A stretch of DNA of 63,760 nucleotides, filler included, from Sluysia triapertura (Eukaryota), in the NCBI GenBank assembly GCA_046118255.1. It is 5 parts of 5 records of this genome, joined end to end, with 100 filler letters (N's around TTAATTAATTAA, not from the genome) between each part and the next. Parts side by side here need not be neighbours in the genome. Positions count along the whole stretch, not along the records: positions 13,293 to 25,825 come from JBJNIA010100991.1; 4 more parts are not named here. The stretch is one strand, 5' to 3'. The stretch's first letter is position 1. Each line of letters opens with the position of its first letter. The position numbers were made by a program, and so were the translations under genes. The notes beneath the pieces were generated by a model. It saw only the letters and a list, made by a program, of their open reading frames with translations, was not told the origin of the DNA and made no database searches. Positions 18,280-63,760 of the stretch are shown piece after piece.

Positions 18280-20137
18280 GCTTACGTTTTTTGCTTTACT
18301 GATTTATTTTTTATTTTTTTAATATATATCTTTTGTGAGTCTTCTGACACTGGACTTATTCACTGAAGGGCCAGCGCATACATGTCAGCGTCGAAAGAAA
18401 GAATGGAGAGTTGGATAGTATGGATTTTTGTTTATAAATTTGATGTACCACTTTTATTTATGATCAGAAATGAACTGAATGCTTTGAATATTTAATGTAT
18501 TCTCCTTATTACAAGTAGAAGGCTTTTTAGTTCCTTACAATAAGAATGAACAGCTGTAATACAATTATTTATTATTAGGAATATAATACACAAAATATAT
18601 GATATCAGCAAAATTCAATGAAATATAGTCATACACAAAAATATTACACCTATTTATGAATAAAAACTAATGAATTATACGATATGAATCAAATTCGATA
18701 CACAATAATATTAAACGTTAATAAATTATATAATAAAATTTTTACTCATCACACGTACTATATAAATTGTAGTCAGAATTTTATAACGAAAGCTTATTAA
18801 TAATATTAATTTGTAATTAATATCTCATGTAATAATAATGTTATAAAAGGAATTATATCGCAAATAAAATTTACAAAGATTTTTTTAGTTTAATTTTAAG
18901 TGTTATTTATTTTTTAAAATTATCTTAAAAAATATAAAACTAACGGTTTCAAATGAATCATTTCTCAAACAAGCAATCAATCTATTTATCAATCAATTAG
19001 TATTTATTCTCTCTAATTTGAACGAGGAGACAAAATTGAATAAAATTACAGGGTATTCGATTAATTTTTTCCCAATAATAAATTTCTAATCAATATCTTA
19101 TTTTAAATTCAACGATTTAAACAATATAAAATAATATATGTAGCTAAGCAGTAAGTATTTTAGTATTAAGAGAGTAAACAAAATTTTCAACATATTTATA
19201 GTATTTATCGCTGTAAGCAAATAAACAAATGATAGTTTACCTTGGCTTCAGTATTGTTTTTAAATAATGATATTTTTTAGATAATGATAATAATAAATAA
19301 TAATTTCGATTTAATAATAATAATTCCAATTTCATTTTAATAATTTAATTTAATAAAGATTTTAATTATTATTTAAATATTTAAAGATTATTATTTATTA
19401 TTTAAAATTTTAAAGATCTATCATAGTAATTAAATAATTAAATTTAATTAGCTAACACGTAAGTGGCATATAAAAGATAATTAATCGTATAACAATTAGA
19501 ATCGTTGACAATTTTTTAAACTACTTGGAGGTCAAAGTACGAAAAAGATTTTAATTCAAATTTGGCAATTTAAGATATAAAATTACAACAATTTTTTAAA
19601 AGACTGAATGAAAAAATCTTTTAATTAATATTTTAAGTGTAATTCTCAACAAGTTTAAACTTTGATAATCTTATAACAAATTCAACTAACGATCATTATA
19701 TAAGACTAATCGTTGGAAATCCTTGTAAAAACTAATTCTAATAACATCGCAATCCTTCTTCGATAAACAATATTGAAATCGTAGACAGAAAATCTTTCTA
19801 ATCAAATTTTTATTAATCAATATTTATAATTAAATTCTTACTAATGATTTTGTCTTTAAGTGTTTATGAATTTTATATTCATTTGTCAATGTATATAAAC
19901 AATTAATTATTATTATTATTATTATAAATTATTATTATTATATTATTGTTTCATTTACAAATAAATTGTTAGTTAATTTTTTTAATAAAAATTTTTAAAT
20001 AATAACAAATGTTACTTAATAAACTAAAATTTAAACTAAAATGTTAAATTATAAAATGTTAATATATAAATAAATAAAATTCAAGTTGTTAATATAAATA
20101 AAATACAAATCAATGAGATGAGAGAATGAACTTGACA
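18280..20137 (-). repeat. Degenerate gypsy-family LTR (copy B)
   Basis: Starts with TGT after a purine-rich tract (TAGGGAAAA); 18780-18945 aligns with 21730-22010; conserved motif at 18335-18400 matches 21303-21370. Boundaries approximate. Confidence 0.55.
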
Positions 20138-20199
20138 TAATTTTCCCTAATTTTAACAATAATTATAATAAATGTTCACCGCATAAGTTAATAATATCA

Positions 20200-20496
20200 A
20201 TGCAATCAAACACTCGTCTTCATTTAAATCACCACCCAGAGCGCCATAAATCACATCATCGAAATCGCTGTCATCTATCGAATTGGGTAGAGATTCTTCT
20301 TGACCTTATTCTGGTTCATCCTGATCGTCAAAATTCACAGACGAGATTCAATGTTATGCCTTTTCATAATTGTCTTTAATTGCCATTCTTTTATTTTTAT
20401 GTTGTATGTCTGATATATTTTGTGCCTCAAATGATCATGTAGAAAAGTTGAAAATATTACCGCTATTATTTGTGCAGCATGTTTTTTGTACAGTAC

Positions 20497-20556
<60 letters not shown>

Positions 20557-21020
20557 GGTTTAGAGATAGATTTCTCAAAATTATTAATTGTGATGATCTC
20601 TCGACTAACTGTGGCAAGAATGATGTGTCCCTTTCATTAAGTATATCAAAAAGCGACACCATGTTCTTCACTAGTTGGTCACAAGAGACGCGTGGTGGAA
20701 AATGTGAGATAATCAAAAGATTTGTACAAGTGAGGTTAACGATGCCTCACAGCCATCCGTATGGTACGTGGTGTCCGGAAAAAATGCCACTAGGATTTTA
20801 TCATACAGAGCTGACATCCAAAAATGTCGAATTTCAGATAAATCCTTTGCTTCTTTTAGGTTTTCTTCTTTTAACCCATGTTCTCCCGTAATAAAGTTTT
20901 TTATTCTTATCCTTGGACGTATAATTTTATCCGAGTGAAAGAGTTTAGGGTATGGTATCAAAACATGCTCGGATAATTTCATGTTTATCATTAAAGTCAA
21001 GGGCCAGCTAAACTATCTAA
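20200..21020 (-). pseudogene. Retrotransposon 3' accessory ORF remnant (DnaQ/DEDD-like domain plus acidic tail), copy 1
   Basis: PYPKLFHSD..RPRIRIKNFITGEHGLKEENLKEAKDLSEIR..YDKILV, then HFPPRVSC..VSLFDIL; frameshifted and interrupted by (AAT)n; paralogous to 22500-23300 and 34150-34540. Confidence 0.65.
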
Positions 21021-21255
21021 GATGGATATGTGTGAAGTATGCGTGAAAGTCACGCATTCCTGCCATTTATAGATGTTATCAGTGTCTGTTTCGTATTGTA
21101 GTGGGAATTGAGAAAAATCAAGGGGATTGTCGTGCGAAGGTAACAGGTAGTTCTTGAATTCCTATTTGGATCTTACAGTTACTAGATAATTTTTTTATAT
21201 ATTATGAGGTAAATCCCTGCAATCAAAGAAATTGGTCCATGAAGATAGATACTTT

Positions 21256-22434
21256 TGTGAGAATTTTGCTTTAAAAATATATTTTATGTTAATATATCTT
21301 AAGTGAGTCCTCTATGACACTGGGATTACGCACTCAAGGGCCAGCGCACAGATGTCAGTGTCGAAAGAAATGAATAAGGAAAAACTGGAGGTAATATGTT
21401 ATAATAGTTAATCGTCAGATTTTATTTAAGATCTAAAATGATCTACTTGATTTTATTATTTTCTTTGTTAGCATAAAGAAAATTATAACTATACACTTTG
21501 CCAATGAAATACCATGTTAAAATTGGGCAGATTACAATTACTCAAATGCAACTATTTATTAATAAATTTGAGACAAAAATATGCAATATTTTTAGGACAG
21601 GATGCAACTATGAATTTAAGACAAAAAAATACACAATATTCAAAAGTTCAAATAATTATTTAATAAAAATATAATCATACAAAATGTTTAAAAACAATAA
21701 TCAATGTTACCCATAAATATAAGTTTAATACAAAAATGATTTATTAATAATATTAATCTTTTAATTAATATTGTATCTAGGAATATTATGAGATGATATT
21801 ATGTAGTAAATAAAATTTACAAATATTTTAATTTGATTTTATGTTGTAGTAAAAGGTCTAAAGTGCCATTTGGTAAAATTGTTAGACGAGGCTGATAGCT
21901 CAGTGGTAGAGCATCGAATTGCGTAGCGAGAGGTCTCGGGTTTAACATTTGCGTTAAATTTATTTTCTTGTAAAATGAAATATCTTAAAATATATGAAAC
22001 TAAAGAATTTTTAATATATGACCAGTAAATAATCAGCCAGAAAAAATAGCAGTCTAAATTAATTTAATCTAGTCAATCCACAGAGTTAATTTATAATATT
22101 TCTTAGACAATTTTTAAGATTTATAAAAAAATTATAATTTAACTTGTGTGTTTATAACAATTATTCTACTGTATTTATATTAATTTTGTTTTATGTTGAT
22201 GACAACGAAGTAACTATAAACAAACAAATAAATAATTCACATTATTTTCACAATAATAATAAAATTTTCTTAATAATAATAATTTCAATTGTCTTAATTA
22301 TTTTAATTTATTAAAATAAAATTTTATTTTATTAGTATGCACATAAAAGTTTTGATTTAATTTAATTTAATAATTCCATTTAATAATTACATAAATAATG
22401 ATTATTATTACATATTACATATAATACGCTTACA
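21256..22434 (-). repeat. Degenerate gypsy-family LTR (copy A)
   Basis: Preceded by GAGACTAATTTTCCCTGATAGGGAA (22466-22441), starts TGT, ends ...TTCTCACA like the LTR at 41242; homologous to copy B. Confidence 0.6.
21842..21947 (+). mobile_element. Internally deleted solo LTR of the tRNA-containing TRIM, nested in a gypsy LTR
   Basis: TGTTGTAGTAAAAGG...TGTTAGACGAGGCTGATAGCTCAGTGGTAGAGC...TAACA; flanks TTTA/TTTG (3 of 4 match). Confidence 0.8.
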
Positions 22435-22499
22435 TATAACTTCCCTATCAGGGAAAATTAGTCTCTAATAGATTATTATTACAAAAATTTGAATAAAAA

Positions 22500-23300
22500 G
22501 AATTAAGTATCAACAATGTTAATAACATCGTCATAGTCAAAATAATCATCATTATCTGGGTCCAAATCAATGATACTAAAGTCATCTTCACCAAAAAGTA
22601 CAGAATTGTCTTCATCTAGCCCATCCTTTTCATTCATTTCGTTGTCCACGTCATCATAGATCTTTTGTCGCCCTCAGCATTCAGCAAGTTTAATGTTATA
22701 TCTTTATGTTTTATTCCTTTATGCGGAAGATGTTGTGCAGCATGTGTATTATGCAATAAAGAACAAGATTTCGAAGTAGATGGAACCTGGATATCCAATG
22801 GTTTATTAATCATTTGCGGTAAAAATGATGCATCTTTTTGTCTAATTAAATCAAAAAGCGATACGTAATCCTGAGCTAATTTTATGCAAGTACCTCTTGG
22901 TGGAAAGCTTTAAAACTTTTCTAGCATGATTTGACGGATGAAATAATGAATATGACACTAAATTTGTGCAAATGAGATTGATAATACCTCTTAACCACCC
23001 AAAGAAAACAAGTACTTTATCATACATCGTAATTGACCAAAATTTTCTTATTTCTGCTATATCTTTCGCAGTTTTTAGATCGTCATCCTGCAATCCATGC
23101 TCCATTGTAAGAAAGTTCTTATTTCTCATTCTTGGTTTTATAAGTTCGTCAGAATGGAACAGTTTATGATATGGTGTAAAACAAGTTCGGATAATTTGAT
23201 GTTTGTCCGAGAAATCTAAAGCTAAATGGATTGCTACAAAAATTAGATTATTTTTATCATCTATATCCTCATGTGGTAAATTAGAACTTCTTGCCAATTG
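22500..23300 (-). pseudogene. Retrotransposon 3' accessory ORF remnant (DnaQ/DEDD-like plus acidic tail), copy 2
   Basis: ORF 22851-23297 (LIFVAIHLALD..TCFTPYHKLFHS..TMEHGLQDDDLKTAKDIAEIR..YDKVLVF), continuing after frameshifts into FPPRGTC..VSLFDLI and a D/E-rich tail just before the PPT. Confidence 0.7.
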
Positions 23301-23499
23301 TATAAGTTATCAACATCTGATTCAACAATGGAAAACTTGTTAAATCTAGTGTCAATTGAAAATGTTTGTTAAGAAAATTTCGTTTCATATCAGTATATTT
23401 TGTCAAGTTTGATGAATAAAGTATAACCATTGTTATTAATTGAATAAATAATAATATTCAGGTTATTATATAGAGAAATTTATTCTGAATCCCTCTTAC

Positions 23500-24980
23500 G
23501 AACATTATACTACTGCTTCTATCCTTGCCATTGTATGTTTCTACACCAGATGTATTTGATTGCGAAGTTGGAAAAATAGTAGTGTCCTACCAATGGAGAT
23601 TTTCCCAGTTTGGGGTTGGTCTTGTGGTCTTGACGGATTTAATGGAGAAATTTGATAATTCTGTTGAGGTGCTAACGGAGGCATTGCTCTCGTCATTGGA
23701 AGTAAAACTAATTGCGGTAATACTATATGTGCTCCAAGTAGTATTTTGAGAAATCCTGATCTTCCATGTGCTACACATTTTCTTACTTAGTACATCCATG
23801 CCTGTTATTACGTCATAGGGACATATATCTCATATTGTTACAAATATATCTACATCTAAAATTGTAATATTCCATTGAACATAATATTCTAACTATCTAC
23901 TGTAAATAATCGTATACCAACTTCTTGTAACACACTAATTTCTAAAGCGTTTAATACATTATAATTGATAAAGGATTATTTGAACAGATCTTGCTCATCT
24001 TTGATTAAATTTAATACTTTGTACTAAATGATTTTGTATATCATATTTATTGTACTTTTTGATTTATCTATCATTTGTTTAGGTGGTTTTCTCTACCTTT
24101 AATCTTTGGTTTAACTTTTAAAATACTTTTTGTTACTTTTGTCTCTTAAATTATATTCTTCTTTTGGTACTAATTTGCAACGATTTACGTGTACAACAAA
24201 AGTTTCGGCGTTCATATCATTACTTCGTATGGTCATTTGAACGGCTTATGTAAGTTTGGAGAATATCCTGTTTTAGCTATTGGATAATCTACTAATACTT
24301 TATCTCCTATTTTAAAATTACGTTCATTTACTTTTTATCACAAGTATCTTTATAAATTTCTTGTGAATATCTTATTTGTAATCCAGCAAGTTTCCACGCA
24401 CTTCGTAAGTTAAAGGTTTATGATCGGTACATAAAAATACTCTTTATCCTAGTAGAAAATGTATAAACAATTTGTATGTATACACTATTGCTAGACTATT
24501 GTAGAATAGTTCGTTTCTGCTTTATTTAATCTTTTACTTGCATATGCTATTACCCTTTCTAAATTTTCTTAATTTCTTTGTCGTACTATTGCTCCTATTG
24601 CAAAATTTCTGGCATTAGTTGTTATTTCTTCTCTTTGTTTTCTCTTTTTCCTTAGAGCATTTAATTGAGATGATATAAGAGAAATTTAGCTAAGAAAGGA
24701 AAACATCCAAGTATTAATTTCCAATTAAAACCTACTACTGATAATATTTGAGATATTATAAGAGCAATGACCTTAATTATTACATATAAACCTATTAATC
24801 CTGAAAATGCTTGTCCTATTACTAAGAAAATTCCCATATATGTTTTAAAGTATTATGTGCCGCTTTCTTAAACTGGTCGGGTCCCAGTAGTAATTCGAAA
24901 TTCACCTTACCATCTTTTTCTACAAATGCTTTACCAACTTTATCTGTAAGTACTTTTGGCCTTTTAATAGGAAATAATAT
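23500..24980 (-). mobile_element. Internally deleted sister copy of the env-gypsy element: glycoprotein C-terminus, RNase H, integrase tail, second protease
   Basis: Reverse-complement translation gives ILFPIKRPKVLTD..NFELLLGPDQFKKAA..GQAFSGLIG (matches 57126-57330), TTNARNFAIGAI..IAYASKRLNKAETNYST, FVVHVNRCKLVPKEEYNLR and CPYDVITGMDVL, in the same order as the plus-strand element. Confidence 0.85.
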
Positions 24981-24987
24981 TCATGCC

Positions 24988-25320
24988 TGTAGGGAATTCA
25001 TCACATCAAATCCATTATAATTCACCACATAAAATTTATGGAAACTCATCACGTAAAATTCATCACAATTCATCACATAGAAACACTCCACATATACACA
25101 AACTATTAAACAAACTATTAAACTCATTTAAAAGTAAACACGACCATCCCATCTAACTATCATGGACTGTCGCTATTGTTATTACGATTCATATCAGCTT
25201 AAAATATGTGCAACAATTATAACCATTATTGTTATATAATAAATATCAAATAATAACTTTTATAATAACTTTAATAATAATTTGTATGACAAAACTTCAT
25301 AATAAATTTCAACAATCCTG
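24988..25320 (+). repeat. Dispersed LTR-like repeat, family 2 (TGTAGGGAATTCATCACA...)
   Basis: Aligns over ~280 bp with 36633-36915; both start TG; internal TTCATCACA repeats. Confidence 0.7.
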
Positions 25321-25409
25321 TATTAATGAACATAATAATCACATAAATGTTATCATTATTATTGTTATTTTCTTTTTTATCCTTATTATTAATCTATCTC
25401 TCTGTTTGT

Positions 25410-25825
25410 TTTAATTTTTCTTTTATACTTTATCCAGAACTTTTTGCCAACACAAATTTAGAACATGTACTTTTAGTTCTATTCTTTATTATGATACTTT
25501 GTTTGTGTTTTGATAATCAATTGGCTTTGTTTGACTGTATTGTTATTGGATTGATGGACGACATAACACAAATACTAAAATGGAGTTGTATTAGACAATC
25601 GATTTTTGTAACAATTCATATATTGTGCTTCATTGCGTCGTTATTATTCATCACAGAGACGGGTTTCTATTGGTTTGTTTTGTATCAAAAATTTTGTGTC
25701 AGTATTCAATTAATAATTGTCGTATTTTTAGAATCGATTTTGATTAGTCATGTTTATGGTTTCGAAAATTATGACTGTGATATTCGATTAATGAATGGTG
25801 AAACTATTTATGTGTTTTGGAAATA
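25410..25825 (+). CDS. SLC6 / sodium:neurotransmitter symporter family transporter, partial (about TM8-TM11)
   Basis: FSFILYPE..VLFFIMILCLCFDNQ..LFITETGFYW..FLESILISHVYGFENYDCDIRLMNG..YVFWK matches the SLC6 pattern AFIAYPE..LFFLML..LGLDSQ..GG.Y..E...I.W.YG..F..DI..M.G..FW; truncated by a gap. Confidence 0.75.
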
Positions 25826-29052: not shown

Positions 29053-30735
29053 TTAAATTGTATGTGAAAGGGGTCGGCGAGTGGCCTGTGTAAGACATTT
29101 ATTTGTGTTGGTAATGTTGGTACCAATATCGTGTGCGATTAAATGTTTTTGACTTGTGCAAAAGGGTTTGTGTGTTGTATTTGCGTTAGGTGTTAGATGA
29201 GGGAAAAAGTTTTTGTAGTGTATGTTAGGCGTTGTGATTTGTTTTTGTGATGGAGTGTGTTCAACTTGTCGTGGTGGAGTTGTGTGTTTATTAGAGTTTG
29301 AAGTAATGTTGTTATGTAGGAGTTGATTTGATGGTAAATTAATACTCGTGTAGTGTTGTGTTATATCAGAGCGTATTTGTTCTAGATCTTTATTAAATTG
29401 GTTAATGAGGTGCGATAAATGACTTCGGTCCGTAGTGTCTGTGACAGTGCACTTGCCAATGTTCCTTGGCTTATGTGGTTTTGTATTGGATGGAATTGTG
29501 TAAATTTTGTTAGTATGAAGTGCCCATTGAACGTGTTTTGGTTCGGTGGTATGTTGCTTAAGATGTTTAGCCGTATTGGTGTTATTTGGTTGTTTAAGAA
29601 TTGATTTAAAATTTGGCTTATCGGGTATGATTGGTGTGGACAATGTACATATAGATGGTGAAGCTACAGAGTTGATATTTGTGCGTTTTTGTTTATTGAT
29701 GTTCTTTGAAGAGTAGCATGAAAAAGTGTAAATGGGTAAGTTTATGTTGGTTGTAGTAAAGCCGTAAGGTATAATCTTGTTATTTTTATTCCACTTATGG
29801 TTGTGGGAGGAATTTTTACTTTGCGTATAAGTGTTTGAGTGGCGATTTTGATGAGGTGAATATGACGTGAAGTCGGAGGTATTTTGTGTGTGAGGTCGGT
29901 GCGTTGTATCTGTTGGACATAAGTCTTTTGTTATACATGGGTATGATTTATGTTTGTTTATAGCTTTGGTTAATGTGTGATTGTGATTGTTAATGTTATT
30001 GATCGTGACCCGATGTTGTGATATAATATGTTGTAAATTATATTGTGTTGAGTTGTTGTTATTCAAACAATCTGATATATTAAGTGGGTGTTTTTGTGAA
30101 AATGAATTAAGGGGTTTAAAATTTATGGTAGGAATGTGTTTAATTTGATTGAAATTGCTTTTAGATTGCTCATTATTCGCTGGAACATATAAGTCCTTGT
30201 AATAATTCGTAATACCCAAAGAATTTAATGCGTATAGATTAATGGGGTTGACATTAAAATTTTGTCTTACATAGGATTTTACTGAGTACATATTAGCTAA
30301 TTTAGAATTTATGTTTAAATCATTTCTAATTTGGTTGAACTTTGTTGAAATAAAAAATTTTAAGATTTTAAAAATAATATCAAAATTATTATTGAAAATT
30401 ACACAAAAAATTACTTTATCTCCGGGAGTGTCACCTTTTCCTTGGTTGAATTGAAGGTAGAATGAAGCATAATTAGAAGTGAAATGTGTGGTGCTTTTAG
30501 AAGTACTTTTCTCCTGACACCATTGTTGTGATGGCCGGTATACGTTATAATTGAAATTGAATTTAGATTTATAATAAAATTTATAATTAAATGTTATTAG
30601 TTTTGAAACATTAAAATTTAACGAAAAGAAATAAACAATATAGTAGTTATATTCACATTTAAAAATAAAATCAACGTTTAAATTACAAAAGGGTTTGTAA
30701 TAATACAGCAATTTAGGCTTCCAAAGCCCATACAT
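29053..30735 (-). CDS. Orphan 560-aa ORF rich in N/H/T/K/P, low complexity
   Basis: Longest uninterrupted ORF in the window; strong C/A strand skew; no family recognised. Confidence 0.4.
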   Translation of the reverse strand: MYGLWKPKLLYYYKPFCNLNVDFIFKCEYNYYIVYFFSLNFNVSKLITFNYKFYYKSKFNFNYNVYRPSQQWCQEKSTSKSTTHFTSNYASFYLQFNQGKGDTPGDKVIFCVIFNNNFDIIFKILKFFISTKFNQIRNDLNINSKLANMYSVKSYVRQNFNVNPINLYALNSLGITNYYKDLYVPANNEQSKSNFNQIKHIPTINFKPLNSFSQKHPLNISDCLNNNNSTQYNLQHIISQHRVTINNINNHNHTLTKAINKHKSYPCITKDLCPTDTTHRPHTQNTSDFTSYSPHQNRHSNTYTQSKNSSHNHKWNKNNKIIPYGFTTTNINLPIYTFSCYSSKNINKQKRTNINSVASPSICTLSTPIIPDKPNFKSILKQPNNTNTAKHLKQHTTEPKHVQWALHTNKIYTIPSNTKPHKPRNIGKCTVTDTTDRSHLSHLINQFNKDLEQIRSDITQHYTSINLPSNQLLHNNITSNSNKHTTPPRQVEHTPSQKQITTPNIHYKNFFPHLTPNANTTHKPFCTSQKHLIAHDIGTNITNTNKCLTQATRRPLSHTI

Positions 30736-30999
30736 TTCACGTGGTTTAGCAAAAGAAACGATATAATGAGTAACTGTCCAAACGTCCGTGCACAGTCACG
30801 ATCGGAGAGTCAGTAGAGTATCGCACTGTATGCATTCTTCCAAAACATAAGGGCATGTGTATGCCGATGTATTATTATGATCAAAATTAAAATATTCTAT
30901 GTTATCTTTATTAAGATCAACTTTAAAATACTTTATATTATCTTTTTACGATTTCGCGTTTAAATGAAAACGTTAAAAGTTATATTTTGCTCTGTTACT

Positions 31000-31945
31000 A
31001 AACTGCACCAATAATTCACTATAAATGATTTTAATAAGAATTTAATAAGAACCTTTTTTAAAATGTTCATAAAATGAATTAACAAAATTAAATATGAGGA
31101 TATATTAATACAATGAAAAAATTGTAGATACAATAAAATATAATAATAACAATTTAGTGAGATTATTATGTTAATAATCTTATGTAGATTGAATTTAAAT
31201 AAGATTTTATTTGGTTAACAATTTAAACATTAACCTCAAACAAGATTATAATGATTTTAAGTCTATTTTACTTTGCATTGTGAAACTATCGCTTAAACTT
31301 ATACGAATAAAACTAACGACAATTAAACTGTTTGCTTTCAGAAATTTAGAAATAGAGAATTAAACTTCAACAAATTTTTAAAATCAATGGTAATGTTTAA
31401 TCTGTCAAAATTGTTATTGTATTTATATTAGAAATAGTTAACCTTGACTTACATAAACAAAAATTTATCGTTAGTTTAGAGATTATTAAATAAATAACTT
31501 TATTTTCATTCAAAATATTAAATTTATTTTCTATTAAAATATTAATACAAATTAAACTTATATTTAAATTAATTCCTAAACATAAATCATAAACATATCA
31601 AACCATCAATATATCAATAAACCAATAAAATAATAATATCACATAGTATACACTAAATTAATTTTTCTGATCATGGTACATTGCATACATTGACACAACA
31701 CTGACATACATTTCCCATCAGGAAAAATTAGTCTCTTAATTTTAACAACATAAGTATCATTAGTGTTTGGAAATGTCAAAAGATTCGCCGTCCGATAAAT
31801 CAGCTCCAAGTTTACCAAATTCGTCACTCAATTCGATTATTTCTGGTTCGTCGTCCAAATCCACTTTATATTCCACACTAGTCCTTTTAGCAGCTTCTTT
31901 TATTAGTGCCGACTTCGTTGGATGTTTAACTGTTTTCATCATGTT
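31000..31945 (-). mobile_element. 3' end of a gypsy-family copy: acidic polyprotein tail, PPT region and start of the 3' LTR
   Basis: DDEPE..GKLGADLSDGESFD resembles DEPE..GALGGDLNEDE near 20230-20330; GAGACTAATTTTTCCTGATGGGAAA then TGT (31735-31708) matches 22466-22434. Confidence 0.6.
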
Positions 31946-34149
31946 ATAAGAAAATGTTTGTTTGATTTCTATTTAATGTATGATTATTAAATGAAAAATT
32001 AAATTTTATGAAATTACAATTAAAATAATAAATTTCATTAAAATCTTTAATAACTAAAGATCTTTCAATAAAAATTTCGTAAAATAATGAACAAAAATAA
32101 TCAATGAAGCCTGATCTATTTTGAACTATAAATGACACCAAACACATTGAGAAACTGACATCACGAAAATGAAAGAAAAAGAATAATGTTAATAATAGAA
32201 TCAGAAGTTATTACTTGATTAGACTTTATTTTAACAGTTGCATAATTCAATAAATAGAAGCGGTAAAACTGATTGACAAATGTTCTTTTTCTACGTTGGT
32301 GGTACACTTATATCACGGCTGTTTTAGTTTTTTCGTGGAAACACACGTTGTTCATATACTGTAGTTTTTCATGGATCTCGTTAACTTTATGAACGAGAAA
32401 ATCAATCTTGCTCATTTGGATAACTTTATGTAAAACTAATTTTTCACTTGAAACTAATGTCTTAATTTAAACAGCTTACTTTAATAATATGAACTTTATT
32501 TCTACTTGACTTAATAATTTCATAGAATAGTTCTAATTTATTAACATAAACATTATTTATGTTAGACTTGCTAACTTGATTTTATTTAGATGGACGTTAT
32601 CTTCGGTCGACTTGATGATTTTTTGATTGAACTTTATTTTATCTACATAGACATTAATAATGGTTGACTTAGTGATTTCATTAATAAGTTCTAATTTATT
32701 AACATAAACTATCTTCTCTTTTATGTGCGCATAAGAAATTAGGTAGAAGTTTTCCATTTAAGCGACTAAATTATTACACTAAAAATTAACTCTTGGCTTT
32801 CTGTATAGTTACTCAAAATTATTTTTAATCGTAGATTTGTGGCGTTACTAATTTTGTAGTAGTAATATACATGCGTTGGGGTTATTTATTTTGGGCTTTT
32901 ATTATTATTATTATTGTTGTTATTAGATTTAAAAACTAATTCAAACTTAATAAAATTCGATGCTTAATTATTATTCTTATTGATGATAATTTAGTCTTAA
33001 TAAAAATCAATATTATTATTTGCAAAGCTTCAAATGTCTCTGGATACTTTGTGTAAACAAATTAATAATAAATGTAAACAATACAAATTCTGTAAAACGG
33101 TTCTAGTTCATTTTTTACTTCCAAACAGGAATGTTTATTTGAGATGTGTGTAATATTGTTTGATTTATTTGGTGTTTGCTTTTCTTTTTCTGCAATACGC
33201 TCAAAATTATTCAATTCATTTAATGTTACCACCACTCGAATTGTACTAGTATCTCTTTGCCTTTGAGCGTCAATTTCTTCACGTACGTCCTTTCTTTCAA
33301 CTTATTAAACATACTTGAAACTTCGCCCCAGATATATTTCTAGGCGAACCAACAAATGTTTGTTTTGTAGACACTTCAGCATTTTCAACGTTCTATCTTT
33401 TGAGTAACAATACTGGATCATTATTGCAACCGAATACTAAACTTAGAATAATTTTGAATTTGAATTTTGTACAGATTTAACTTTATCCTTTAAGCCTGAT
33501 TTAATAAAGTGAAGTTTCTTTGATATCGTTAAAGCTTTATTATTTTACCTTTTGCTAATAATTCATAAACTTGCGCCAAACAGAATCCTTCAAGTTTTAA
33601 AAATAAAATGATAAATTGTCCAGAAAAACAATATCAGATAGACGCGTTAGAATATAATGATGACTAGATAATGTTGCAGAATACGATGCATCATATAGAA
33701 GAGAATTAGAAAGAGTATAGCAAACATGAGTTTAGAAGACGAACAGATAGGAGGCTAAAAAGAATGAAAATGACTAAAAGAGGGTTGGTGGAATTGAACA
33801 TGTTTTATGGAAATTTCATTTTGTTTTTTTTTGAATTTTAAAATAAATTTAGTAAGTTTAGATCTAATGAGTAAATTTAGATATTGTGTAGTGTGTTTGC
33901 GTGGATTTGTAGTTTTAATGTGTTTGTGTTTACTTGTACGAGATGAAGTAGAAGTAGGTGAAAAAGTACTTTCACATGTTATGTCGGATTGTGAGAGAGG
34001 AGTAGTACATAAGTCATTTAAAGAGTTTTGTGATGCAGAAGAACAAGGGAGAGAAACAGGTGAAAGGAGATTGGCAATAGTAGATTGATAAAAATATCCT
34101 AAATTTGTGGTTGAAACGATACATCATTAACAACCAAAATATCAGACAG

Positions 34150-34540
34150 AAATCAAATCTTTAGACATTTTGGTGGAATGGATATAAGATGCGTAGAACC
34201 CTTCTTGCTCTAGACACAAAATTGAGCGATGTGTGTGACGCGAGGTTGGCATAAGTCAGATTTATTGTGCCACGTAACCAATCGTAAGGGATCTTAAACG
34301 TGTGAGGAGAAACCATGATTTCGTCATATGAGGCATTCAACTAAAAGATCCGGACGTTAGATAGATCCTTAGCCTTATGCAAATCCGCTTCTTTATACGG
34401 ATTCTCAGCCGTATCTCCTCTGAATGGAAACGTTTGTGATAAGGAGTGAAGCAGGTTTTTATTACATGGTGTCTGTCATCAAAATCTAACGCCAATTGCA
34501 CCGCAAAGAAGATCAACTTGCTTTTGTCAGTCATTGAAAT
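34150..34540 (-). pseudogene. Retrotransposon accessory ORF remnant (DnaQ/DEDD-like), copy 3
   Basis: DKSKLIFFAVQLALDFDDRHHVIKTCFTPYHKRFHSEEIRLRIRIK is clearly paralogous to the 22851-23297 ORF. Confidence 0.7.
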
Positions 34541-35856
34541 ATGTGGGTTATGAATAAAAGTTATTCGCTCAACCTACTTGTAAAGTTTGTGTCTGATTCA
34601 TATAACAATGGTTACTTAACTGTGTCTAAAAGTAATTAATAAAATTTTATGTTAATAATAATAATTATTATAATAACTTGATAATAATAATAACAATAAC
34701 AATATTGTTATTATTATTATCAACACTAAAAGAAAAACGCATAAATCTCTTGTTTCTTAACTAACATTAACTTGCTTTTAGTACTTTCATATTCTTAACA
34801 TATTTTAAATCTAGAAATGGTTAAATTGAATTCTATAACAATGACGACAAAAGAAACGGTTTTAAAGTTATTATGGTTATTAAATTACATAAATTGCTGA
34901 ATTCTTTAAAATTATACATGATCTTCCTTTAAATCCTTTAGATTTCTTCATATATTGCGATAAATTTAAATATATTTAAAACTAAAATATCTGAATAAAG
35001 ATTAGTTTAAATGAATTTGCATTTGTGATTAACGTTTTAAGGTATGATAGCAGTTTTATGTCGTCTAGTGAAATGGAAAATGTTAGAATGGATTCTTAGG
35101 TGGTGATTTAAGTTCTTGATTGAAAGCGACATTTGAGTATTGGCAGATTGTGAATAAAAGACCTATTGAGAAGAATGTGGTTTAGTAAATGTGAAAAGGT
35201 AATTATAATACAACTCTTGGTATATTTGAAAGCTTATTGTGCAATGTTTTACGTGATTTGTTTATTTATTGTTTTTAAGTGGATAATTTCAAATGTGGTT
35301 GTTGTGAATGTCGAGTTATATGTTTTTGCTGGATTTGTTGATGTAAATTGGTAGTATTGGATGTAAATGAGATGTTTAAGCTGTAAGATTGTGAATTGTT
35401 CTATGGGTGTAGAAAAGATGATATGTAAATATTAGAATGTTAGGAGTTATTTTTGTCAAATTTAATAATATTAAGTGTTGACCACCACATATACCGTTAT
35501 ATAAGGAAATCAGTTACTGATAATTTGCGTGTGGTTTTGCTTGTGTTTGATTCATTTCTGAATGAAAAGAGTAGGTTGGTAAGAATTGAAAGTATTAGTT
35601 ATGTTAATTTAATATGTGTTAGTTTTATATTAATTACATTTTTATTTAAGTCATTAATTACCTATGTATTTTAGGAAGAATGACAATTAATTTAGATATG
35701 ATTTTTATTGAGGAATGGATTTATTGTTCTAGTCTTATTCTTTTTATATAAGCCGGCTTTCTTATATAGACGCCTTATTTGTCTGCGACGTCGATTATGC
35801 CTTTGAGATTTTATTAACCCAGTAGGATAATTTGGTGGAGGTATATTTATTGAATG

Positions 35857-52385: not shown

Positions 52386-52487
52386 TNNNNNNNNNNNNNN
52401 NNNNNNNNNNNNNNNNNNNNNNNNNNNNNNTTAATTAATTAANNNNNNNNNNNNNNNNNNNNNNNNNNNNNNNNNNNNNNNNNNNNC

Positions 52488-54890: not shown

Positions 54891-55687
54891 CACGAAAAAA
54901 TAATAAAAGCTGTTACTACTAACAAGACTGCCGAATACGAAACCTTATTCCAAAATAAATCGGATGATGAAGTAAACGCGAACCCTCAGACAATTAATGG
55001 ATGAAAATGATAGTGAAATAACGAAAAATAATGATAATGAAATAACTAAAAATAATGACACAATAGAAGAACCTGATTATATGGTGAATCTTAACAAAAA
55101 TCCAAACATTGAAACCAGCGACAAGGAAACAAATACAATTAAAAGATGGCCCTGTCGGCCAAGAAAAAGTGAAGAAGATATATTAATAACGCTGAATCCT
55201 GTTCGAAAAAAACGTTATAGATTTGACAAAAATAATAGACGAAAATGATGAAGAACCAATGGAATTAGATACAAACATAGTGTATGCGTTTTTATCTAAT
55301 ACGTTTACAAACTTCAGTAAGTATAAGAAATTATTACCCAAACTAAAGAGTACAATAATAAAACTTATAAAACAATTAGAGAAATATAAGGACAAATATG
55401 TTATTGATTTTATAGAGAATGGAGAGTATAAATCAATTATTAATAAACAACTTAGTAAGGGAATAAATAGAGAAAGATTTAAAATAATTTTAGCTTACGC
55501 CGTGTTTCAATGCAATAAGGAAAGGATAATTGATAAGAATAAGATAAATAAGGTTTTGTTAATAAGAAAACAAAGTTATGGATTGAAGAACAAGGAGGAT
55601 TGAGAAAAGAGAATCAAAAAATCGACGAAACGTCAAAATAACATGTTAAATACTGCTATACCACGATTAGGAAACTCAGAAAACAAT

Positions 55688-57460
55688 ATGCTCTTTGTGA
55701 TAATATTGTTATCTATGTTTGGTATAAACAAATCTTGTGCAATAAAAGCCTCTGACTGTAATCAACCACAAGTTGGCAGGAAATTCTCATTACTTGGCCC
55801 GGAATCAAGACCAAGCAGGATCCAAATAAAATAAACTAAAATCTTTAGTACATATCAAGAAGGAAATCTAATAACAGCTCTGGTTAGAGAATGTTTGGTA
55901 AAAAGATCAGTGGTGATATGGTATTATGGTCATCATAGCCATTCATCGATAACAGAATTACCACATGTATTAAAACCATTCAAGATTTTGTCGAATAATT
56001 GTAGAGATGCCTTCGAAACAGGATATATCGGATTGGTAAAAGGTGATAAATTACGAGTGAGAAATAATGAAAAAATTATTTATAACATTAGAACTGCCGG
56101 AAATGTACTAACAGATGGGACTTGCGAATAAGGATCAATCGAGTATGAAGGGAAGATTTATCATAATGTAGTCGCTCAAGAAACTTTTGTAGTAAGCTTA
56201 AAATCTTTTAATGAATGTTTTGATATTGGAAAAGGCGCAATGATGTCTAGATCATTTTGCCGAATGGATCAAACAAGTTGTGATACAGGTGAATCCACTC
56301 TAATATATGAATTGGATAAGTTCCAGTGTTCTTTAATATTTTTAAAACAAATAAAATTTAATTTAGTATCCGGATAATGATGATCTACCAATTGAAGAAA
56401 TAAACAAAAAGGAACAAGTACAACGTAAAACATTAGATCAAATAGAAACTCCTACCATTATGATGGTCAGTAAAGAAGAATATGGTTCGATCTTTATATC
56501 AAAAGGAACGATAATAAGATGTGGAAAAGAAATTATCGAAACCAATTATCAAGGTATTTACCTTTCTGAAAAAACAATATTACAAGCAAAAAAATGAATA
56601 GATTCAAAAAATATAAAATTAAATAGTTATTTTAATAATATGACAGACTTCTACTACCATCTTGGGTTAATGTCCTTAGAAAAAATTTATTAAATTATGA
56701 TTGCTCGGGATTGCCAGCTGAACAAAGAAATACTACGTACAAAACTGGCAGTGGCCATAACAAATCACGATCTGGTCGCATCATTATTACCATTAGAAGA
56801 AGGCGTATTTGGTACTATACACTTACAAATGTAAAATAGTGGAAGTTCAACTAAGACCAGCGACAGAATGTACAAATGAATTACCAATAATATATGGAAA
56901 AATAGAAACTTATCTAGAACCAGTAACAAGGGTAATATTCCCTAGTGATAAAATTATAGAATATATGAAAACTTATGGATTTTGCTACCACACAGAACTC
57001 AAGTCAAAGTACCGGAAATTATTGAATTAACGGAATTAAAAGGAAAATTGAAATTTTTAGCAACAAAAAATATATCCCATTCAGCTATGTACACAAATGA
57101 AGATATACAAGCGGCGTGGCGGTAGATACTGTTTCCTATAAAAAGATTAAAAGTACTAACAGATATATTAGATAAGGCGACAGTAGAAAAAGACTGAAGA
57201 ATAAACTTTGAATTATTGTTAGGACGAGATCACTTTAAGAAGGCTGCTCAAAATACATTAAGACAGATTTGGGGTAGTTTTTTAATTCTAGGTCAAGCCT
57301 TTTCAGGGTTAATTGGTATTTACATAATAATTAAGGTGATAGTGTTAATAATATCTCAAGTTTTCTCTGTTGTCGGAATTTATAAGATTTCAGGTTTTAC
57401 ATGGAAATTGATAATAGGCTGATTTCCATTTTTGGCGAAGTATCTGTTACACCATCATGC
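55688..57460 (+). pseudogene. env: Env-like class III fusion glycoprotein, chuvirus G-like
   Basis: Signal peptide LFVIILLSMFG..CA, then IKASDC, ECLVKRSVVIWYYGHHSHSS, AG..TDGTC, NVVAQ, CGKKIIETNY, DCQLNKEIL, CKIVEVQLRPATECTNELPI..YLEPVTRVI and TM region IWGSFLILGQAFSGLIGIYIIIKVI. The motif order matches chuvirus-type G (GYDC, YYCGMHSH, DG.C, C..V.V.....CYNELPV..L.P..RI, W..F..FG..SAG..GI). Confidence 0.8.
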
Positions 57461-57694
57461 TAACTCACAAATAAATGCATTAAGAAAAGAAAGAACAAGA
57501 ACTGAAAATGAAAATGTGGCATTACAAACAATTCAAAATGATGAAAATGAAGAAATTGAAGAATTAAAGGAAAATCTTAAAAGATCACAAAAGGATACAC
57601 AAAGGGATAAAATTTATCCAAATCCCCCAACATCACCAGTGCCAAATGTGGTTTATATGATAATATGTGCAAATAACAACTATAATAATTCTAA

Positions 57695-58010
57695 AAGACC
57701 AATGGCCAACGTCTAAATCAATGGAAGAATAATATTGGAACTTGTAGATACAGGAGCAGTGGCATCATTAATTAATGAAAACCAGCTAACAGAAGAAGAA
57801 CAAGGGAACCTTGCAAATCATTTTTCACATTTATCAGGAGTCACTGGAGACGCCATACATTTTATTGGAGTAATGAAAGCCATATGCGAAGTAGGACAGA
57901 ATAAAGTTGAAGTAAAACTAAGAGTAATGAAAAAATGTCCAGAAGACATGATATTGGGGATGGATATACTATCACAACTAAAAGGAGTAATATTGGATTT
58001 TGATATTGAA
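57695..58010 (+). pseudogene. Aspartic protease 1 (retropepsin)
   Basis: RPMANV*INGR..LVDTGAVASLI...CPEDMILGMDIL. Confidence 0.9.
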
Positions 58011-58539
58011 TAACTAATGGATAGTTATTCAAACAGAACTATCGATGACGATGATGTTTACGTTGATGAACCATTATGGTTATTAAGTAGAACCGAATAC
58101 ATAATGCCAGCAAAAACAAATAGTTCATTAACTGGCCTAATTACGTTTATAGCTTCAGAAACTAATCAAGGGAAATTGGATATAGGTATTGCAGATTCAA
58201 TCTATAATAATTGCGAAGGAAAGATACCCGTTCGAATTATAAATTATACGAATGATAATAAATGGTTATTTAGAGGAACTAAATTAGGAAGAATTGTTAA
58301 TTATAAAATACAAACACATATTAATGTAGTGACTGATACGAAAAGCAATACAATAAAATTAGCGCGACATACAAGAAGAAGATTATGGAGAAATTCAAAT
58401 TAACAACAAAAATCTAACTAAAAGACAAAAGGAACAACAATATGAAGTTATACATCGGTATCCAAGAGCAATTTCAAAAAACAAATGCGATATTGGAGAC
58501 TCTAATTATAAAACACGAGATACCACTAACAGAGGATAA

Positions 58540-59330
58540 GTAATTCGAAGGAAACCTTACAGAATTCCTATTTGCAATCAAAAAGAAATGCAAGATCAAA
58601 TCGATACTATGAAGAAGACTGGATTAATAAGACTTAGTTTCTCTCCTTTTTCATCATCAGTATTACTAGTTAAAAAGAAGGACGGTACGACGCAGTTCTG
58701 TATAGATTTCAGAGAATTGAATAAAAAACACGAAAAGATGCATTTCCACTACCACGAATAGACGAGATGTTAGATAAATTAGGGAATTCTACATATTTTA
58801 CAACTTTAGACTTACAAAGCGGATATTGGCAGATTTAAATAGCAGAAAAAGATAAACACAAAACAGCTTTCACATACGGAAACGAACTACACGAATGCGA
58901 AAAGATGCATTTGGTCTAACCGGCGCACCGGTAACTTTCCAACGTTGTATGAATTTTGTGCTATCAGGATGTAAGAATGTCATGGTATACATAGATGACA
59001 TCATAATATTTTCAAAAGATTTTAAGACTCATCTAGAAGACATCGACAATATTTTAAAAAGACTAGAAGTTACAAGACTTAAGATAAAACCTACAAAATG
59101 TGTATGGGCAGAAGAAAAAGTATCCAAAGATGGCATTAAACCAAACCCAAGAAATATCGAAAAGGTAATTAAGTTCCCTCAACCAGATAATGTTAAAAAG
59201 GTTCAGAGTTTTTTTAGGTCTAGCTAACTATTATAGAAGGTTTGTTAAAAATTTTGCAAAAATCGCGCAACCTCTCAGAAAGCTAATAAAGAAAAATGTA
59301 GAATTTAAATGGACTGATGACCAAACCAAA
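58540..59330 (+). pseudogene. pol: Reverse transcriptase (Ty3/gypsy)
   Basis: [80 protein letters not shown]. Confidence 0.95.
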
Positions 59331-59394
59331 GCGTTCAAGGAATTGAAAGAACATCTCACCTCAGCACCAATACTAATTTTTCCTGATGTTAGTA

Positions 59395-59730
59395 AACTGT
59401 TTATATTAACTACGGATGCTAGTAATTATGCTATCTGCGCAATTTTAGGCCAAAAAGATAAAAATAATCTCGAAGCAGTCATAGCACACGCCAGTCGGAG
59501 ACTTAACAAAGCAGAAATGAATTATTCGACTGTAGAGAGAGAATGTCTAGCGATTGTAAATTGTTCAGACATTATTTGTTAGGACAAACCTTTGCTATAC
59601 TTGTATAATCACACAGATGAAGTCAGTAGACTTAACAGATGGTTTAATAAATTGTCCGAATTTAATTTGGAAATTGTTTATAAGCCAGGTAGCTTAAATA
59701 ACGGAGCTGACTATATGTCAAGATTAACAT
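59395..59730 (+). pseudogene. RNase H (Ty3/gypsy)
   Basis: FILTTDASNYAICAIL, NYSTVERECLAIV, RLNRW, YKPG..N.GADYMSR. Confidence 0.9.
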
Positions 59731-59949
59731 ATGTAGATGATAATGGGAACATAAATTTAATTCAAATTATGTCAGTATCGGGAAAAATGCAAAATTCTGA
59801 AGAAATTATTAAACATCAGAGAGAAGATAAAGAGATAAAGAGAAGATAAAGAGATAAAGAGAAGATAAAGGGACCTTAAACGATTTACAAGCCAACAGAT
59901 TAGCTATTATGGATGGGATATTAAGATTTAATAACAATAAAGATAAATG

Positions 59950-60870
59950 GAAAACGATTATCCCAGAATCATTAATTATACCCATTTTAATACAATTTCA
60001 CGATGAGTCACTTATCAACGAGAAAGACATCAAGAATTAAAAGTAAATACTACTGAGACGTAAAAATACAGGACAAAAAACTAAAGTACCGTTAAAACCT
60101 GTGCCAGTACCATTATCACCAATGGAATTTACCGCTATGGATATTATGGGTCCTCTCCCAGAGACTATCAGTGGTAATAAGTATATAATAGTATTCGCAG
60201 ATTATTTGACAAAATGGCCCGAGGATTATCCAATGCCCAATCAAAAAGCCGAAATATTGGCACAAATATTGGTGGAAAAGATAATATTCAGATATGGAAC
60301 TCCTAGAAAATTATTAACAGATCAAGGAACTAACTTTACCAGCGATGTAATCAAGTTAGTGGCTAAAATTTTTAATATTCTTCGACTTTATACATCGCTT
60401 TACTATCCAAAACCGATGGACTGGTGGAACGTGTGAACGAGAGAGAAACAGACTAGGATTTATATATAGCACTGTCTTTTTGCACATAGAAGTTCTGTAC
60501 ATCCATCAACTAATTTCACTCCTTTTTATTTAATGTATGATAGACATTCTAATATGCCAGAGGATTTGAAATAGGTTCCACAACGTGACAACATGAGAGA
60601 ACAATTACAGGATGCATGGAAACGGGCAGGTCTTCAAATTAAATATTCTCAAGAAATATATAAAGACGCATACAAAGCAGCTAAAGAACATACTTTTAAA
60701 ATAGGTGACGATTATCCAATAACTAAACCGGGTCAATAACTTAAGTTACATAAACCTTTTAAAGAGCTTTATTTAATAACAAAAGTTACTGATACAAATG
60801 TATTTGTTAAGGATCCTAATAAAATTAATTCTGAAACGTTTGTAGTGCATGTCAATAGATGTAGATGGCA
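59950..60870 (+). pseudogene. Integrase
   Basis: MDIMGPLP..GNKYIIVFADYLTKWPE, LTDQGTNF, Y.PKTDGLVERVN, TPFYLMY, FKIGD, VVHVNR; HHCC region partly deleted. Confidence 0.9.
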
Positions 60871-61029
60871 ACAAAAGAAGAATATAATTTAAGAAACAGA
60901 AAGTTACAAAAATCAAAATTGAAAATTCAGCCAAGACACAAAGATCGAGACAAACCACCTTCATTTCATGCACTAAGACATAAACAAGTAATATTTATGA
61001 TGCATTCCCATGGAAATGACTTGGCTCAC

Positions 61030-61320
61030 ACAATGCAAAACGTACGATTCAATGGGCGTTGGGTTAGAGCACTTATAGATACCGGCGCTACCATTTCAGT
61101 GGTTCATAAGAACTTTTTAACTACCTGGGAATCAGTGTTCTTAAATAGACCAAGATTGATAACATAAAATGTCAATCCAACACCAATAAATATCAATGGA
61201 GCTCTATTATGCTATATAGAAGTATTATGGCAATATGTACAAGTTTTAGTAAATGTTTGGGAAGTAGCCTATACGAATTAATATTAGGTATGGCTGTTAT
61301 CAATAAATTAGAAGACATGG
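61030..61320 (+). pseudogene. Aspartic protease 2, downstream of integrase
   Basis: VRFNGRWVRALIDTGATISVV ... YELILGMAVI. Confidence 0.8.
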
Positions 61321-62150
61321 TCATTTACATTAAATATGGCTTTATAAAAGTACCACCAGGTTCAAACATGATTATACCACAATTAATAGTTCCACAAGTC
61401 GGTGATGAATTAACCTTACATCAAATGCCAATTTCGAATCCACCATTACAAGTTCCAGACTTACCATTACCTGATATCGTATATCTACACTTAATTTATC
61501 AGATGTATCGTGTGGATCTTCATCAATAGTTACATCAGAACGAAGTTTGGACTCATCAGGAATTGGCTCAGATGTTCAAGATACAGTAATGATAATGACC
61601 CATATAAGGAAAAGAAATTGTTTCAATAGAAATTGTTTTAGAAAAATAACTTGTTGGCTTTATATCTTAATTGTGATTTTTCTATTACTTATAACTAATG
61701 CTATAGCAACGGAAACAGATGAAGAATACAAAAATATGATGGCAGAGAACAAAAAATAATGATTACCAATAATTATAATCAATATTGGAAATTTGAATTT
61801 ATTTCCAAGAAAATGATTGCGCGACACAAATTTGAAATTTATTGTATCTATTTAAAGCCATTACTAGTGGGGAGACCACATCATTTAAACGATATTCCAC
61901 ATTGTCTGCATTATGGATGCAGACATGTGTTAATAACTTTTTCTTCAGATACCCCAATAAATACACGAGATATTTGGAAATTTATCAAAAAAGTAAAACA
62001 TTTGGAAAATGGAGAAACCCATGTCTACCGCATAACACTAATAATGATGACGACGACGCGTATACAGTTCCACATCGAAACAATTACGCTCCTCCACCGG
62101 GCATGCCAATAGTTCCACCTCCAATTTATGAATACGCTACATATAATTAA

Positions 62151-62882
62151 ATGCCACTCATACGAGACTGGCAAATGACTCAAGTAAAATCTACAATCTT
62201 GATATTTATCTATCTATCTTATATATCAAGTACGAATTACTTATCAGAAAACACCACACCTAGAATAATTTTAGTATCTACTCAAAAAGATGTCTATACT
62301 AGAATATTCATAGATAAAATTAAGTTATTTTCTGTTCAAATAAAATGTTGCATAATGGATTGGTGTGAAATTGAGACAAGGGCAAGTAAACAGGACTTCT
62401 ATTTGTTTATATTTTGCATGGATCAACTAATTAGTGTAACAATAACTATGGAACTGGAATATGACTCTCAGAGTGACTCCAGAACTATCTTGATAAGAAC
62501 TAAACCATTTGTTTTCCGTCAAGCTTCAACAGTAGTTGAGTTTCCAATGATCATCTATCGCTATCTCAGAAATGTACGTATTCATAACCCACCACACAAC
62601 AATACATTAATAATTGCATATGAACTACTTGACGGTTTACGTTACGGAATGATATTGCCTAACGATACGATTCGTTTATATCATATTCCAAATAATAAAC
62701 TCGTTTATCAAATTTTGGATATTAAGAAAACAGAAACACATGACTCAAAAGGATTCTGGCCAACAATCAGATATAACGACGTGCAAGTACCAGTTATAGA
62801 TAAGTATGAAAATGATTCGGATACGAATTCAGAGAAAACGGCTAAAATCAATAAAAATTTTACGAATATATTTACAATATAA
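62151..62882 (+). CDS. Orphan 243-aa ORF in the 3' accessory region of the retrotransposon
   Basis: Uninterrupted ORF on the element strand, flanked by hydrophobic TM-like segments (61650-61710 and 62980-63070); no family recognised. Confidence 0.4.
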   Translation: MPLIRDWQMTQVKSTILIFIYLSYISSTNYLSENTTPRIILVSTQKDVYTRIFIDKIKLFSVQIKCCIMDWCEIETRASKQDFYLFIFCMDQLISVTITMELEYDSQSDSRTILIRTKPFVFRQASTVVEFPMIIYRYLRNVRIHNPPHNNTLIIAYELLDGLRYGMILPNDTIRLYHIPNNKLVYQILDIKKTETHDSKGFWPTIRYNDVQVPVIDKYENDSDTNSEKTAKINKNFTNIFTI

Positions 62883-63760
62883 ACATGAATATAAGTTCGA
62901 ACACTACCAATATAAATACGAATGTCAGTAAGGAAAGTATTGAGTGCCCAGCTATAGTGAAATCCAACAATAATTTCATCATAACTATTAATTATATTTT
63001 AATAATAATTTCTTTAGTGACAGTAATTAATTTTATTATTCCAAAATTTTATTTATTAGGCATAGGGCTCATTTCTTCATATAAATCCCAAGTCATATTG
63101 CATAAATGACCATATGTAATGGTACTCCCATTCATTAAAATCATAAGGATTAATATTAAATTTGTTATTAACAAATAGTAAGGATAGTGCAAATGACTGT
63201 ATGTGATTGTTTACCATTCATTTCGATTCATGCAAAAACTAAAATATTACTTAACTTTTATTTGGGATTAGGATTTTTTAATTTTTTATAAAATTAAAGC
63301 TTTTACTAGTAGATTCGATTCCGTCGCAGATTTTGTTAATAAACACTAGAAATCCTCTGTCGATCAGTTCTTTCTTTATCAAGCTGTTCAGTATCATATT
63401 GGTTCAAGTACCTTTTGTTGTACTCATCATATGCGTTAAATACTTGACTCTGGTTAGATTCATCTTAAATGGAATAATGATTCTTTAAAAGCATCTTAGG
63501 GAAAGTATCGTTTTAATTCAGCATTTCTGGTCATTACCACATTGACTTTAAAATTACTGATTATAAGTTGAATACTTTGCGTCTTGGGTAAATCGTAATT
63601 ACTTATAATGATGCATCGTTGATCATTGAGAAGGACATAACTATCAACTTTGACGAAATATGTGATTTGAAAGTGTGACATATAAACCATTTCTAAAGTT
63701 AACATACTCTCTAATGATAAATTCATATAACTATCTACGATTGATTGTAGGCAAACAAAA

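Follow-up and report, generated by a model that had tools for sequence, protein, structure and literature searches.

A decayed, envelope-bearing Ty3/gypsy retrotransposon copy in Sluysia triapertura with a likely second-protease remnant and an exonuclease-like open reading frame

Copy A and its plus-strand sister

The minus-strand sequence at 24987-22435, here called copy A, no longer functions and has lost much of its length; it derives from a Ty3/gypsy retrotransposon that bore an envelope gene and was probably of the GAG-ENV-POL type (Table 1). It was analyzed as part of a 63,760-nucleotide stretch of Sluysia triapertura DNA (the window), which is AT-rich eukaryotic DNA (GC 21-32%). Four identical linkers of the form N44-TTAATTAATTAA-N44 (13193-13292, 25826-25925, 36917-37016, and 52387-52486) join five pieces, and linkage across each is not implied. 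Copy A is in piece 2 and its plus-strand counterpart, copy D, is in piece 5, with N-linkers between them; copies B and C are, like A, on the minus strand.

Table 1. Features of copies A to D and of the repeat that borders copy A
Feature	Coordinates	Strand	Evidence or remarks
Repeat R, high copy, begins TGTAGGG	24988..25316	+	right end not fixed
A: G C-terminal part, HSV/gB-type (Monjiviricetes-type), with membrane anchor	24629..24987	-	PF24664, blastn
A: RNase H fragment, after ~1.9-kb deletion (first protease, spacer domain, and RT missing)	24428..24625	-	PF17917 E=5.5e-11
A: integrase C-terminal tail, after ~1.0-kb deletion (integrase core missing)	24085..24411	-	blastn to D 60613-60960
A: likely PR2 remnant, retropepsin-type	23782..24065	-	position of D's PR2; C-terminal GMDVL kept
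A: linker common to A and D, with P/Q-rich and S/T-rich frames that overlap and a hydrophobic helix after them	23400..23784	-	DNA z 4.2
A: decayed exonuclease-like (candidate DEDDh/DnaQ-like) accessory ORF	22700..23390	-	frameshifted, probably 5'-truncated
A: acidic tail	22505..22661	-	40% D+E
A: 3' motif GAGACTAATTTT..CCTGAT..GGGAA, then T-rich/TGT start	22435..22465	-	likely polypurine tract and LTR junction
Copy B: exonuclease-like ORF, a (TAT)n expansion, an acidic tail, and a faint trace of the 3' motif	20130..21140	-
Copy B: exonuclease-like ORF	21140-20600	-
Copy C: exonuclease-like ORF (34610-34000), ~2 kb of other sequence, acidic tail, 3' motif	31700..34610	-
Copy D core: G, protease, spacer, RT, RNase H, integrase, PR2, shared linker	55604..61790	+	Pfam
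Copy D: accessory ORFs X and Y	61723..63100	+	no family match (Pfam, PHROGs)

In copy A, the G C terminus, RNase H, the integrase tail, and a protease remnant follow one another in the order of D. Self-blastn and tblastx within the window gave four matching blocks, again ordered as in D, and a chained alignment, the short blocks of which match partly by chance, aligned 1,391 of the 1,651 bases in A 24990-23340 to D with 70% identity. Relative to D, copy A lacks ~1.9 kb from the first protease through RT (D 57507-59415) and ~1.0 kb comprising the end of RNase H and the integrase core (D 59588-60601). The domain order, minus strand, and large internal deletions claimed in the earlier note are thus confirmed by the alignment with D and the Pfam matches. 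Stops, frameshifts, and deletions are found in both copies.

The earlier note had also raised the possibility that the pieces are separate adjacent insertions. That this holds for all of them, or that they are an assembly artifact, is very improbable. The window does consist of five joined pieces of a very repetitive genome, but A lies wholly inside a single piece that is free of gaps, five of its domains follow the order of D, and contigs of sequencing run X1 (possibly the source sample) match 23295-23966 and 22392-22825 with zero differences. A search of sequencing runs matched one run, and no RNA run was among the matches listed. Collinearity on one strand from G to a hydrophobic helix (see below) makes a single insertion well supported.

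The 5' end of A is cut by repeat R, which truncates the copy inside G. Repeat R is 84% identical to 36637-36911, the two sharing their TGTAGGG boundary (24988 and 36633), and reaches a summed contig depth of 131,000 to 326,000. Neither a 5' LTR nor a target-site duplication was found around A. Beyond repeat R lies a fragment of a sodium:neurotransmitter symporter (25347-25823, plus strand; PF00209 E=1.5e-22) with a summed contig depth of 500 to 1,000, suggesting many related copies. A short, very high-copy repeat with a tRNA-like look occurs at 5086-5474, 12493-12643, and 21842-21942, with a summed contig depth of 233,000 at 21780-21964. A 407-amino-acid open frame at 13890-15113 (plus strand) contains an importin-beta N-terminal domain (PF03810 E=7e-11); a homologue search found no longer homologue, which suggests a very divergent host gene.

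The core of copy D contains many stops and frameshifts. Its pieces match PF24664 (E of 4e-18, 7e-10, and 1e-25), cover positions 3 to 651 of the model, and lie upstream of the first protease (PR, here PR1). The tail of G and this protease read in one frame, with stops present (57000-58400). The order of pol domains typical of Metaviridae is found in D (PF00077, PF00078, PF17919, and PF00665 in sequence), and A keeps RNase H ahead of the integrase tail, which fits that order. A degenerate Cys/His stretch is visible by eye at 53337-54092, where gag would be expected and which had no gag or CCHC Pfam match; 58014-58400, between PR and RT, had no dUTPase Pfam match; and a homologous-protein search with the G-PR stretch of D returned zero matches. 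Further relatives of the 5' region of D lie at 37120-37731 and 41800-42320 (plus strand); they share 72% DNA identity with 52487-53169 and resemble 54768-54881 at the protein level. Between these two relatives is a ubiquitin-like ORF (38124-38630; PF00240 E=2.6e-6); Burro, a planarian element discussed below, reportedly has a ubiquitin-like domain.

Selection on the envelope and pol genes

G precedes RNase H in A, and its C-terminal part (24987-24629) is 71 to 75% identical in DNA to D 57110-57506 over four main blocks, with one frameshift near 24835 and a region near 24733 that is 18 nt shorter than in D. The blastn match to D 57126-57456 has E=1e-36. The PF24664 match of A itself (24834-24670) has E=1.4e-3, below the curated cut-off, while the corresponding stretch of D matches at E=1.2e-25.

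Selection on G was assessed in three ungapped blocks, with 99 of 101 codons used and two with stops dropped. Thirty-nine codons are identical between A and D, 36 differ only synonymously, and 24 change the amino acid. Differences at codon positions 1, 2, and 3 number 15, 11, and 52. The resulting pN/pS was 0.17 (bootstrap 0.11-0.25; pS 0.745, pN 0.125), with pN biased somewhat downward by taking the codon blocks from similarity matches and upward by postinsertion decay; frame-shifted controls gave ratios of 1.3 and 2.0. The Jukes-Cantor-corrected omega of 0.04 was not relied on because pS is at saturation. In the GQAFSGLIG segment, four of nine codons differ and every change is synonymous, as the earlier note had read it. 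The dN/dS comparison that it had proposed gave a value far from 1, and its claim of purifying selection on G holds, given this ratio, the excess of third-position differences, and the shifted-frame controls. These results support purifying selection on G before decay, as expected for an element with an extracellular step.

The pol fragments behave in the same way. RNase H has a pN/pS of 0.31 over 42 codons, the integrase tail one of 0.24 over 60 codons, and the two jointly one of 0.26 over 102 codons, which shows that pol was under purifying selection before decay. The integrase tail matches D by blastn at E of 1e-10 and 1e-12 and PF22938 at E=0.1 only. Since synonymous sites are saturated between them, we conclude that A and D belong to sister lineages of long standing, which separated while still coding and fell into decay afterwards.

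The region after the integrase

In D, a second protease domain, PR2, follows the integrase (PF13975 E=3e-5, PF00077 E=4e-4). Together with its upstream flank, it shares 32% identity with PR1 plus flank (57579-57800 and 60910-61131), and the protease parts of PR1 and PR2 align with a z of 17; this likeness is consistent with an old internal duplication. The earlier note had reported PR2 in A as well. Its position and the GMDVL motif stand, while the statistics are weak and the catalytic D-T/S-G motif is not readable: the sequence compares with D's PR2 at a DNA z of 2.0, with the C terminus of D's PR1 at a z of 8.0, and with D's first protease at a phmmer iE of 0.14, and A's PR2 is closer to D's PR1 motif than to D's PR2 (scores of 57 and 34). 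We accept it as a likely PR2 remnant on its position, with homologous sequence on both flanks.

The earlier note held that unrelated ORFs follow PR2 in the plus copy. This proved incorrect for the first ~400 nt, which are common to both copies: A 23784-23340 aligns with D 61312-61790 at a DNA z of 4.2, a value reached by 0 of 100 local shuffles. Two frame pairs of this linker match in one register, each at a score reached by 0 of 200 shuffles. Of the overlapping frames, one is rich in proline and glutamine (P+Q of 0.27 in A and 0.25 in D); the other is rich in serine and threonine (S+T of 0.39 in both) and ends in a hydrophobic helix (KD19 of 2.56 in A and 2.54 in D). Protein matches in two different frames indicate that the DNA register is the same in A and D. 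Only past the helix are the copies unrelated (z of -0.3).

Beyond the helix, D carries ORFs X and Y. The end of ORF X is proline-rich and contains PPxY (62080-62150, plus strand), which we take to be a viral budding (late-domain) motif. ORF Y encodes 243 amino acids with a hydrophobic N terminus, and a hydrophobic stretch lies downstream in another frame. The whole tail of D is repeated in run X1; the start of ORF X (61721-61960) has a contig depth as high as that of the integrase. One X1 contig skips D 61808-63133, which means that deletion forms of the post-helix region exist. D runs off the window at base 63760 before any PPT motif, and the plus strand has none, so the 3' end of D lies outside the window; D may carry an exonuclease-like gene beyond the window end.

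Beyond the helix, A carries an exonuclease-like ORF that occurs in three copies within the window, all on the minus strand. Over 108 codons each, pN/pS was 0.33 for A-B and 0.35 for A-C, which shows that the ORF was a selected gene before decay; the antisense mirror frame gave 0.39, the expected third-position shadow. The DnaQ-like identity proposed earlier holds as a lead only. Its top Atlas matches were RNase_T/DEDDh clusters at 0.88 (the line being 0.9), with 10 of the 10 best family matches in one clan and one cluster commonest in Platyhelminthes. The ORF had zero matches in Pfam, PHROGs (nothing below E 0.08), or the PDB (three chance J-chain matches at E>1), and zero in a homologous-protein search. 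A related-locus pattern search returned one metagenome match and five viral matches, none confirmed. AlphaFold models had mean pLDDT values of 43.5 and 47.4, both under 50. One homologue, P0002 (365 amino acids; E=7e-8, 32% identity over 133 amino acids), came out of a search of 1.84 billion proteins; about 185 of its residues lie N-terminal to the matched region. A and P0002 share an aligned D-x-acidic triplet, which is not seen in C and whose register is not fixed.

Each exonuclease-like copy lies upstream of an acidic stretch. The acidic tail reported for A is real, and those of B and C (31942-31762) contain 28% and 23% D+E. The PPT and LTR of the earlier note fared unevenly: the PPT-like motif of A (22465-22440) recurs in C (31735-31710, minus strand; z of 5.6) and leaves only a trace in B (z of 2.7 with C and 0.4 with A), but the sequence beyond it does not align (z of 0.8 for A-C, 2.1 for A-B, and 2.7 for B-C). 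Given the acidic tails in each copy and the shared 3' motif, the exonuclease-like gene probably stood at the 3' end of the coding region of an LTR element, with a candidate LTR behind it.

The surroundings of the ORF differ among the copies. In C, the 2 kb upstream is unlike the ORFs of D (best z of 1.8), and about 2 kb of extra sequence separates the ORF from the acidic tail; together these indicate that the 3' region varies between copies. Upstream of copy C, 36400-35860 (minus strand) contains pieces, C-P-T-G-H and C-P-L-C-R, that resemble a RING finger and have no Pfam match. A 580-codon stop-free frame at 29053-30795 (minus strand), rich in N, T, and H, with strong GC skew and no Pfam match, is possibly the shadow of a low-complexity repeat.

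The join of helix to exonuclease-like ORF is found in copy A alone. Upstream of the exonuclease-like core, A and B compare at a DNA z of -2.2 and a best protein z of 2.7 (3 of 100 shuffles), and neither B nor C has significant upstream similarity to the flank in A. Because the likeness of A and B ends upstream of the core and P0002 has ~185 extra residues, the junction in A looks like a break. The boundary between the copies lies ~400 nt later than supposed. With this break-like junction and the 3' end of D outside the window, the exchangeable cargo module of the earlier note is unproven, and a third deletion in A is likelier than a swap. The two large deletions already present in A and the X1 contig that lacks D 61808-63133 favor the same reading, which we consider somewhat probable; no sequence here shows X and Y followed by the exonuclease-like gene.

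An alternative that we hold possible, at rather low probability, is that A and D represent two subfamilies that differ in the accessory module following the shared helix: one has the exonuclease-like gene and the other ORFs X and Y. The lack of relationship past the helix would fit this, as would the repetition of both tails in run X1, the diverged X1 contigs that join the helix to ORF X, the synonymous saturation expected of old, separate lineages, the surroundings of the ORF in C that differ again from both A and D, and the family-specific gain of ORF3 documented in the text of PMC5408684 for rotifer gypsy elements. The exonuclease join, however, is seen in A alone, with no bridging diverged contig among the matches listed, D is cut by the window end, and the A junction looks truncated against B and P0002.

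Copy A could also be a chimera in which the region from G to the helix derives from the D family and the exonuclease, acidic tail, and PPT form the 3' end of another LTR family, brought together by deletion or recombination of nested insertions. B and C have no recognizable pol or PR2 upstream, the window is dense in nested fragments, and summed contig depth, which is no copy number, is 173,000 on the integrase tail and about 1,000 on the exonuclease-like ORF. ORF Y of D has a similarly low depth (about 2,000 to 5,000), however, and all of A lies on one strand, in the order expected of a retroelement, as far as the PPT-like motif; we judge the chimera improbable.

Under the preferred reading of a third deletion, G in the active element would have been a class III fusogen placed ahead of the protease, PR2, placed after the integrase, would have processed a 3' accessory region encoding membrane proteins, and the 3' LTR would have been preceded directly by the exonuclease-like gene. 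Once inserted, A would have lost its 5' half at repeat R, the segment from PR1 to RT, and the integrase core. Probable loss of D's post-helix ORFs as well would have left the exonuclease-like gene beside the linker. A broader model, which we put forward tentatively and regard as unlikely as a whole, is that in a planarian GAG-ENV-POL lineage PR2 processes the element's own 3' region, and a post-helix hand-over point swaps surface-protein genes and a DEDDh-like nuclease between subfamilies.

Comparison with known elements

Copy A, which diverged anciently from the plus copy, is a second witness that the envelope before pol, the post-integrase protease, and the helix linker characterize the family and are not peculiar to the plus copy. 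PR2 and the shared linker, now found in two old lineages, are apparently undescribed, and PR2, if intact copies confirm it, would extend knowledge of accessory-gene expression in planarian retroelements, with a possible RNA-degrading counter-defense enzyme among the genes concerned. In the literature searched, no description was found of a post-integrase second protease or of a planarian LTR element with both env and exonuclease; subscription papers and Repbase may hold either, and figures may hold the former. The available portions of PMC8532177 and PMC6338049 contain nothing on PR2. The main text of PMC13524379 uses "protease" once and "exonuclease" never and does not describe PR2 or 3' accessory genes, and the text portion of PMC6431247 yielded no second protease or exonuclease, although its figures may hold one.

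Accessory genes are known from other gypsy elements, here compared through portions of the cited papers. The bdelloid elements Juno and Vesta carry a DEDDy exonuclease, ORF3, downstream of pol (PMC5408684). They resemble the present element in having an exonuclease-type accessory ORF after pol as repeatedly gained, family-specific cargo. Their exonuclease is of the DEDDy type and retains its catalytic residues, and those clades lack env (PMC5408684); the present ORF is a DEDDh-like lead in an env-bearing element, and its catalytic residues are not placed. The sORF2 of the MDG1 group, a small hydrophobic accessory ORF in gypsy elements without env, offers an analogy only (PMC11952523). Troyka was rejected as a relative, since it has no env and has CG..CG termini, while env is present here (PMC12440569).

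The layout of copy A is already published for the GAG-ENV-POL errantiviruses of Schmidtea and for Burro. According to the portion of PMC13524379 available, Platyhelminthes contain GAG-ENV-POL elements with a gB-type ENV, six of them in S. mediterranea (Smed_errantivirus_1-6, none with LTR coordinates in the table). Our element is like these in its gB-type env ahead of pol, and the G of D shares motifs by eye with Smed_errantivirus_3 (CDTGES..IYE/K.DK, TPT.M, and CGK...ETNY.GIY.S; PMC13524379). Such motifs, shared with Schmidtea ENVs, lend indirect support to a likely planarian host; as to the C1a cysteine-bridge type, the observation is this by-eye motif match to the Smed ENVs. Unlike the Smed elements, A and D are decayed and fall short of "intact ORFs in multiple >98% identical copies" (PMC13524379).

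Burro/GYPSM1 are giant gypsy elements of planarians in which env lies in frame between gag and protease and matches mononegavirus fusion proteins, a dUTPase-like domain lies between PR and RT, and decayed fragments occur in a related planarian (text portion of PMC6431247). As in Burro, the env of D is in frame with the protease and a spacer separates PR from RT. Burro differs in its internal region, which can reach 25 kb and encodes BIR, BCL2, MATH, and ankyrin domains (PMC6431247), whereas D, which may be deleted, spans about 7.5 kb from gag to integrase and has no BIR, BCL2, MATH, or ankyrin Pfam matches in the ORFs scanned. We conclude that copy A is a decayed representative of an already known type of element.
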